DNA of 54,636 bases, the filler included, from Malassezia furfur (Eukaryota), in the NCBI GenBank assembly GCA_052055015.1. It is 3 parts of 3 records of this genome, joined end to end, with 100 filler letters (N's around TTAATTAATTAA, not from the genome) between each part and the next. Parts side by side here need not be neighbours in the genome. Positions count along the whole stretch, not along the records: positions 18,267 to 36,425 come from JBQJIT010000211.1; 2 more parts are not named here. One strand, given 5' to 3'. This document shows positions 30,017 to 31,826 of this stretch, in pieces. The notes under the pieces are model-generated. The model was given only the letters and a program-made list of their open reading frames with translations. It did no database searches and had not been told where the DNA came from. Made by a program: the position numbers and the translations under genes. Positions within the stretch are counted from its first letter, which is position 1. Each line of letters starts with the position of its first letter.

Positions 30017-31826
30017 ATGCTGCCAAACCATTCGCGATCTGCGCGTGGCAACGAGTCGGCTCCGTTCTCCGATGTACGCGCCCTGGCACTGGAGACTGGG
30101 TATGGACCCATCGTGATGGACGACTACGAGGCGAAAGACGACGACGTATACGGTGCCCCTTCCAGTGACGAGGAGGGCGAGGGCGACTCCCGGAGCGCCC
30201 ACCCGCGCCCGATGGCCCGCGCCGAATTTGACGATGAAAAACCGCTGGGAAAACAAAATACCGACATCCAAGCCGTGCACGAACGCATCATCGAGCAAGA
30301 GCGGCAGGCCCAAACTCAGAAGGCACTCTCCATTCTGGAGGGCAAAGGAGCCGGACGCAGCATGTCTGCGGGCCACCCCAGCAGTCACTCCGGGTCCTCG
30401 TCGGGCGCAGTACCAACACGCTCGCGCTCGACACGCCGCAACGCGCCAGGTGTCGCAAGCGCGCCTGCCCCTGCCCCCGAATATATGCTCGGCAGGTCGA
30501 ATACGGTAGGAGCGCGACCAAAGCAGCTCGTACGTACGCCCAGCCGGAGAAATCCCGAGATGGGCCGCCCCGAGGTGCCGCCCGCACCTCCTCCGAGTGT
30601 GCCGCCTTTGCCCACAGGCGCACCCTGGGCAACTGGCATGGCGCGGGCCAATACGCTCATGCGTACCCAGTCCGGTGTGCGACGACAAAAGAGTTTTCGT
30701 ACGGAGCCGCCTCAGTATACTCCGCCACCCCCTTATTCAATGCCCGAAACGCACACGGGCGCGCACGGAGCCAGTCAAGCGGGCACCAGCCAAGGCATGC
30801 GTGAGTTGGTGCATGGGATGGACACCATATCTGTGCAGCCGGCGAGTTCCGCGCCACAGGTCGCCTACCGTGTGTTTGTGCTGAACGTGCAGCGGTACAC
30901 GGTGGTTCACCTTCCGCAGGACGCCTTGGTGCAGCAAATGCTGCAGGCGGTGATCCTACAAATGAACCTTGCACCGGTGCAAGATTACACCAACGACTGG
31001 GTCGTGTTTGACGTGTTTTCTGATTTGGCCATTGGTACGTGATCCACTGACACAGAACGGCCGCTTCGTGAGTACGAGCGGGTAAGCGACATTGTGGCTG
31101 CGCGCGACGCGGATGCAGGCTACTTTCTGGCGAAAGTGTCCGAGTGGGCGCCACTGCTGCGCGCCGACAACACGCCGTCGTGCTCCGCGGCGCTGGGTGG
31201 CTGGGTATCGATCCAGTCGGAGCCGCGCAAATGGAGCCGGCGGTGGCTCGAGCTGCGCGAGCACGCGCTGTTTGCGGCCTCGTCGGAATCGGTACGTGCG
31301 CACACTTATGCAGGGCAAAAACTCTGTGCAGCTGGGCACGATGATGGACATGGACCTGTACTTAATTGACCACCAGCGCTCTGCGCTGTCCAAGCCATAT
31401 GGATTTGCGCTGCGCCGCGTATCGGCTGCGGACGTGGGCGGACGCACCGTTGCGTATGTGACGCAGCCCGACGAGGCCGCGCACCACGACTGGGTCAAGT
31501 CGATTCTCGGTGCGCACACCTATGTTCTTCGGCAGGAGCGCCCCGACCTGTTCCATGCCGCGCGGACACTCCCGCCGCTCCGATACCCCCCACCGCCGGC
31601 GCATCCGACGCGCCGGCACACGTACAAAGAGCCGTCGACAGCGCGCCGTGTGCGCTCGCAGCGGCGGCTCGCATCGCCACCGAGCGGTGCTGCGCCGCTC
31701 ATACCGTCCGAGTCGCTCTCGGTGCAGTTCCAGCAAGGCAGTCTCCTTGCCGCGCGCGAGCGCGCCGAGCGCGCCGCCGATCCGCTGCACCGGCCGCCGC
31801 CTCCACGCGGTGCGCCGCCGCACTAG
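30017..31826 (+). CDS. Fungal RA-like/PH-domain signalling protein; introns 31035-31055 (21 nt) and 31292-31313 (22 nt)
   Basis: Splicing gives RVFVLNVQRY...WVVFDVFSDLAIERPLREYE (RA-like) and GWVSIQSEPRKWSRRWLELREHALFAASSESGK...WVKSI (PH-like). Confidence 0.8.

Follow-up and report, generated by a model that had tools for sequence, protein, structure and literature searches.

Short introns have been described in Malassezia before. In M. sympodialis, 5,350 curated introns have a mean length of 30 bp and 99% RNA-seq support (PMC5389616), and in M. restricta the median intron is 30 and the mean 37.2, the annotation having been run with a minimum intron of 20 and then of 15 (PMC6473144, PMC9241646); these and the other papers given below by accession or DOI are cited from partial texts. 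A review also mentions "very short introns" in Malassezia, and M. globosa has a fitted row in the supplement of PMC6157073. With the intron sizes of M. sympodialis and M. restricta in print, the trait is thus known for the genus. As far as their partial texts go, PMC8476143, PMC12506658 and PMC13685798 add nothing on Malassezia intron size, and the available part of a 2026 list of ultra-short-intron lineages omits Malassezia (PMC13644364). On the intron floor, the branch geometry or the splicing mechanism of Malassezia, we found no literature in a search that left aside figures, subscription papers and bioRxiv supplements.

How a spliceosome handles 16 nt between the 5' splice site and the branch, rather than the ~50 nt of human extracts, is a question that has so far been argued mainly from ciliates and parasites. 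We analysed a stretch of 54,636 nt (the window) from a Malassezia furfur assembly (GCA_052055015.1), in which a first-pass annotation had singled out ten GT..AG segments of 21-28 nt as spliceosomal introns of a size unexpected in a fungus. Short Malassezia introns are indeed known, and the surprise was overstated in view of the figures published for M. sympodialis.

Ten short segments of the window and their genes

The coordinates and lengths given for the ten segments proved exact in every case, with GT at the start and AG at the end, and two of them (23465-23489 and 38686-38710) lie on the minus strand (Table 1). Their removal by splicing is backed by orthologues or by domain continuity at eight of the ten junctions; support is moderate at 19938 and comes from motif and frame at 38686. 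To judge from these comparisons, the segments are almost certainly spliced as annotated, and their assignment to the U2-type (major-class) introns is supported.

The branch A lies at intron positions 16, 17, 18, 17, 20, 20, 21, 20, 21 and 20 across the ten segments, and 5-8 nt separate it from the intron end. The distance of "about 15 nt" to the branch A proposed earlier holds for the shortest introns and fails for the rest, the branch A being at 16-21. The proposed CTRAC-like branch site stands as a CTNAY-type motif, strict CTRAC being present in five of the ten, and the GTRYGY and YAG ends describe most of the segments, except the donor at 29046 and the acceptor at 29700. When the window was scored by itself, a loose intron motif was not enriched (9 matches vs a mean of 5.3 and a maximum of 10 in 50 shuffles), and a strict motif gave 4 matches vs a shuffle mean of 0.79, a count reached by none of 100 shuffles. 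All cited introns fall between 16.4 kb and 38.7 kb, and introns of 32, 36, 41, 41 and 171 nt are also present, so that the cited list is a selected short tail.

Table 1. Introns of the window, with the micro-exon that separates two of them
Feature	Position	Strand	Gene	Remarks
36-nt intron	15993..16028	-	near Hsp70 gene start	motif and restored frame; outside the first-pass list
28-nt intron	16470..16497	+	mitochondrial ribosomal protein S2 (MRP4)	
26-nt intron	19938..19963	+	RSN1/TMEM63-like channel	after first exon; moderate support
25-nt intron	23465..23489	-	YjeF_N / NAD(P)H-hydrate epimerase	
41-nt intron	28630..28670	+	PQ-loop transporter	same position in L036 and L038; outside the first-pass list
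6-nt micro-exon	28671..28676	+	PQ-loop transporter	hexamer shared with L036 and L038, where it also lies between introns
41-nt intron	28677..28717	+	PQ-loop transporter	
171-nt intron	28748..28918	+	PQ-loop transporter	long introns coexist with short ones
27-nt intron	29046..29072	+	PQ-loop transporter	in-frame, without stop; donor GTTTGT; 105/113 spanning homologues without extra residues
23-nt intron	29607..29629	+	PQ-loop transporter	98/116 spanning homologues collinear
23-nt intron	29700..29722	+	PQ-loop transporter	AAG end; 106/107 spanning homologues collinear
21-nt intron	31035..31055	+	PH-domain gene, ATG 30017	phase 1; branch A at 16; in-frame TGA
22-nt intron	31292..31313	+	PH-domain gene	phase 0; retention gives a stop at codon 444
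26-nt intron	38483..38508	+	RRP7	
25-nt intron	38686..38710	-	small gene, possibly GRAM/WBP2-like	weakest support of the ten
32-nt intron	38979..39010	-	same gene as 38686..38710	outside the first-pass list

The first intron of the PH-domain gene has a length that equals the genome-wide floor described below. Its TGA had been noted in the first reading: retention leads to a stop at codon 342, removal restores IERPLREYE, and with both introns of the gene removed an ORF of 588 aa is obtained. Eight homologues could be compared. At the first junction four are collinear, three have 7 extra residues and one lacks 21 residues; at the second, three are collinear, three have 7-8 extra residues (V...Q), one ends there and one has a deletion. 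Extra residues in orthologues, which had been named as evidence against splicing, are nominally present in three of the eight at each junction; we read them as in-frame introns of 21 or 24 nt that gene calls made from DNA would have translated.

Gene finders had been predicted to mis-model such genes, and the NCBI models of four Malassezia species, in two genes, appear mis-spliced at introns of this kind: P0001 is short of 25 residues, 7-8 intron-like residues remain in P0122 and P0125, and P0128 lacks 21. These apparently wrong models imply that the minimum intron length used in annotation should be set to 20 nt or less. In P0128 the PH gene is also fused with the neighbouring mitochondrial DNA polymerase. 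In the polymerase gene itself (31827-36481) the reading frame shifts across a region containing a run of 10 N (33943-33952), which is probably an assembly effect.

Orthologous DNA was compared from two Malassezia-like species (L036-L039) and from a distant fungal locus (L040). The first PH intron is missing from L036-L039, and in L040 an intron of 51 nt occupies its position; the second is missing in L036, is 25 nt long in L037-L039 and 48 nt in L040. Since so distant a locus carries introns of 51 and 48 nt at the two positions, these are old introns that have since become shorter. The DNA shows that some of the introns occupy old intron positions and that the segments are non-coding.

For the PQ-loop transporter gene, the counts in Table 1 refer to 130 homologues used of 150 returned, and the fully spliced form gave the best score against the homologue profile. 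At the position of the 29046 intron, L036 has 44 nt and L037-L039 have 26 nt; the introns at 29607 and 29700 are missing from the DNA of L036-L039. In the 26-nt orthologue of the 29046 intron (L037:1551-1576, the same in L038:8233 and L039:2682), donor and branch motif are perfect, but the last two letters are TG. The conserved frame returns when these 26 nt are taken out of L037, and use of the next AG does not bring it back. It appears to be a candidate GT-TG intron of a Malassezia-like species, identical in three contigs.

The exons of the YjeF gene match consecutive parts of 2dg2 (27-124 and 122-255) and of 1jzt, and the gene is uninterrupted at the 23465 junction in the DNA of L036 and L038. 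Of the 13 homologues aligned with MRP4, 12 are collinear with its spliced form, and the unspliced form meets a stop at codon 161; the best named homologues of the MRP4 product are from Malassezia, with M. brasiliensis at the top (92% over the queried region, 311/322 aligned residues). Positions 39-97 of Pfam RRP7 are matched upstream of the 38483 intron, and positions 93-120 downstream of it in the new frame. Removal of the 19938 segment joins the ATG at 19851 to an ORF of 1,030 aa, the first Met of the unspliced form falling within the RSN1_TM match; no homologue that spans this junction was found for the RSN1/TMEM63-like gene. The segment 38686-38710 has a motif score of 27 bits, its retention leads to a stop after 6 codons and its removal adds a PPSY tail. 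Searches of Pfam and PDB gave no match for this gene, whose link to GRAM/WBP2-like proteins is an Atlas lead.

Counted over the genes, orthologous DNA of relatives is intron-less at five of the cited junctions. L036-L039 lack 3-5 introns of the window in otherwise syntenic genes, which suggests that intron loss varies among Malassezia lineages.

Elsewhere in the window, a pyruvate-decarboxylase-like gene on the minus strand (49322-51075) passes from one frame to another near 49.75 kb, where the two frames overlap and an intron motif is lacking, and would be either a pseudogene or the product of an assembly error. The surrounding region (43500-54550) has a lower GC content (47-57%) and long uninterrupted ORFs, which encode two MFS transporters, a DJ-1/PfpI protein, the decarboxylase-like protein, an FMN hydroxy-acid oxidase and an amidohydrolase; it is possibly a lactate or keto-acid cluster.

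Length floor and branch geometry in a genome sample

The assembly holds 13.68 Mb in 1,856 contigs, and many of its genes are present as two diverged copies. This size and these gene pairs fit a furfur-clade hybrid genome, M. furfur hybrid genomes being of ~14 Mb (PMC9040865). We sampled 60 stretches of 10 kb from the larger contigs (600 kb, 4.4% of the assembly), and found 130 matches to the strict motif at 19-34 nt, vs 4-12 in 10 shuffles. The same 600 kb served to train a weight matrix, which was seeded with the 61 top frame-switch scorers and gave 2, 3, 49, 56, 75, 36, 48 and 28 candidates at lengths of 19, 20, 21, 22, 23, 24, 25 and 26 nt, vs 1-3 in shuffles. The same step was seen when the donor weights were left out (1 candidate at 20 nt and 43 at 21 nt). 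The genome-wide length histogram that had been proposed as a check, motif-based here and drawn over 600 kb, thus peaks at 21-25 nt and has its floor at 21. Frame switching by itself was discarded as an intron picker (131 cases in the true frame vs 125 and 104 in decoys) and was kept as a seed for the matrix only.

With one donor allowed per acceptor, 331 of the 429 candidates of up to 60 nt are 21-30 nt long, and 7 are shorter than 21 nt; the motif-based median for introns up to 60 nt is 24 nt. An earlier AG occurs upstream of the acceptor in just 7 of the 331. An apparent class at 17-18 nt was rejected, as it consisted mostly of a GT nested inside introns of 21-24 nt, with flank frames that misfit in 11 of 12 cases. 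The branch A is found at positions 16, 17 and 18 in 58, 69 and 74 candidates, respectively, and at positions 14-15 in none, and the tail after it is 5 nt long in 261 of 425. A branch A at position 16 at least, followed by a tail that is usually of 5 nt, yields the floor of 21 nt. The branch profile is RCTNAC, which can pair with U2 GUAGUA, and a mean of 1.5 nt lies between branch motif and YAG, which bears out the claim that a pyrimidine tract is missing. Among the 425 donors, GTACGT is the most frequent (214), followed by GTATGT (69), GTAGGT (45) and GTGCGT (41), and intron GC is 57%. By extrapolation, the ~350 short introns estimated per 600 kb would amount to ~4,700 per 8 Mb, a figure to set beside the 5,350 curated introns of M. 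sympodialis.

Reading frames were examined in the 137 candidates, out of 425, that have clear frames on both sides, and the shift between the flanks equals the length modulo 3 in 128 of them. Candidates whose length is a multiple of three are under-represented (82 vs 149 and 140, p=2e-5); in-frame stops are not significantly enriched in these introns (15/32 vs 29/96, p=0.09). Between homeologues, both intron ends are kept in 48 of 52 pairs, with an identity of 92% in the flanks vs 67% in the intron middles, and length changes are not multiples of three in 16 of 18 cases, none going under 21 nt. Whereas short introns themselves are known for the genus, the 21-nt floor and the branch geometry are apparently undescribed.

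Spliceosome parts and rival explanations

A modified spliceosome had been suggested, together with an inventory of snRNAs and proteins for losses. The U2, U4, U5 and U6 snRNAs were found, all above the Rfam cut-offs, with a canonical U2 GUAGUA, U6 ACAGAGA and U5 loop 1. U1-70K (RRM) and U1C (zinc finger) are present in two copies each, every gene being split by introns of 23-32 nt, and SF1/BBP is present as well. U2AF65 and SF3b1 are both cut by a contig start: the first matches U2AF_lg with 251.5 bits, under the cut-off of 310.3, and the second matches profile positions 75-106, on a frame of 915 aa. U2, SF1 and SF3b1 gave a single match each in this fragmented assembly. U1 snRNA was not located by two Rfam models, eight patterns and cmscan of 49 loci in the 1,856 contigs, the RF00003 (U1) search having scored just 41 of 173 candidates, and the same contigs gave no RED_N candidate for RED. 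The steric argument behind the suggestion is reasonable (~50 nt in human vs 16-20 nt here), but the parts that were found carry canonical recognition sequences.

Several U1 candidates were discarded. L010, convincing to judge by its motifs, is the reverse strand of an exon together with the donor of that exon, and the homeologue does not conserve the putative Sm site of L010; we take this exon to belong to a Zn2Cys6-like family. Candidates on C763 and C818 have no Rfam match, and 45 further loci have no Rfam U1 match, one of them being large-subunit rRNA. Loss of METTL16 was also rejected as the cause of donors with C or U at +4, since two METTL16 homologues are present.

The U2, U4 and U5 genes (G000 C27, C31, C37, C469 and C683; L007 and L150-L153) have an upstream AACGGCC, 36-67 nt before a TATATA box, a pattern found at just these five snRNA genes (6 matches vs 2 in the control). 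The putative Sm sites of the five have TTTTTC at the end, not TTTTTG.

Could real introns be spliced by a lineage-modified machine, with a divergent or co-evolved U1 snRNA or with trimmed U2 or B-complex proteins? We consider this unlikely. U1 was missed where U2, U4, U5 and U6 were found at once, and the snRNA promoter motif occurs at U2, U4 and U5 only; however, U1-70K and U1C are there with their RRM and zinc finger, and the RF00003 search was partial in a fragmented assembly. Full pairing with U1 requires an A at +4, which 5 of 204 donors have, and a co-evolved U1 has been reported in Entamoeba, but lineages with C or U at +4 mostly retain a standard U1 (both 10.1101/2022.06.08.495308). 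The lack of a RED_N candidate would also fit such a machine, yet Stentor splices introns of 15-16 nt with all five snRNAs conserved (PMC9505925). That the spliceosome has adapted to a 16-nt loop, through a structurally divergent U1 that may have co-evolved with GUACGU donors or through a bypass of the standard B complex, with the 3' site chosen mostly by its distance from the branch, as the apparent TG acceptor of a Malassezia-like species would fit, seems to us distinctly improbable. If true, a fungus that can be transformed and has thousands of introns would possess an early spliceosome that has been rebuilt.

It is very hard to believe that the segments are not removed as drawn, being instead retained, parts of longer introns, or frameshifts or assembly errors that resemble GT..AG: collinearity is exact at eight junctions, with no space for other sites, and the frame test, the homeologue indels and the 99% RNA-seq support of the 30-bp-mean introns of M. 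sympodialis (PMC5389616) all argue against it. On the other side, some proteins of relatives keep in-frame copies or skip 21-25 residues, and 38686-38710 was drawn from motif and frame. Some introns of 20-30 nt are removed by Ire1/HAC1-like or tRNA-endonuclease routes, but for a non-spliceosomal removal of this type, to which size alone points, we see practically no chance here, given an invariant GT..AG, a branch motif at a fixed distance from the AG in hundreds of cases with unrelated spacers, and a window in which no Rfam family reaches its gathering score.

A probable minimal intron form and its known counterparts

We therefore return to ordinary U2-type introns in a genus-wide minimal form, which we regard as the probable reading, and we lean, with less assurance, towards a sequential route that largely conventional parts would follow. 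The minimal intron would begin with GTA(C/T/G)GT and, after a short spacer that is free, continue with RCTNAC, followed in most cases by N-CAG. SF1, U2AF and U2 may read its 3' module, branch and AG, as a single unit that does without a pyrimidine tract. A donor helix over +1 to +6 and a branch motif over +12 to +17 would leave 4-5 free nt in a 16-nt loop. In the human B complex, two helices lie 15 nm (about 21 nt) apart, with about 50 nt from the 5' splice site to the branch and a total requirement of about 52 nt (PMC6692369). With 4-5 free nt set against this spacing, the human arrangement could not be copied, so that recognition is probably sequential: the 5' site would not be stably held by U1 or U6 during the docking of U2, and the floor would mark how small a lariat loop can become while the active site still accommodates the U6 and U2 helices together. 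Deduced from human structures, this order of assembly is the most likely one.

Malassezia can be cultured, and Agrobacterium transformation and CRISPR editing are established (PMC7426719). A floor this sharp predicts precisely how reporter introns should behave in a transformable, easily grown yeast.

For M. sympodialis and M. restricta the published figures are means and medians, whereas the present data give a 21-nt floor and a branch geometry, in a furfur-clade assembly of hybrid size. The introns of Paramecium tetraurelia (mean 25 nt) are of the same size class, and multiples of three are under-represented among the lengths here, as has been reported for ciliates (10.1101/2021.08.05.455221, PMC5014332); unlike them, the introns analysed here are GC-rich, have a strong donor and branch consensus and occur next to longer ones, of up to 171 nt in the window. 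Myxobolid, dicyemid and microsporidian introns are also shorter than 30 nt, U2AF being retained in myxozoans (PMC13644364). In human introns that depend on Smu1/RED, splicing is limited by a minimum distance between 5' splice site and branch, which is ~50 nt vs 16 nt here (PMC6692369). Like the introns analysed here, the 15-16-nt introns of Stentor coeruleus have a tail of 5 nt behind the branch A, and snRNAs and core proteins are conserved in Stentor, as are the parts found here, but the Stentor loop is of 10-11 nt without a branch consensus, whereas the loop here is of at least 16 nt, with a strong RCTNAC (PMC9505925).
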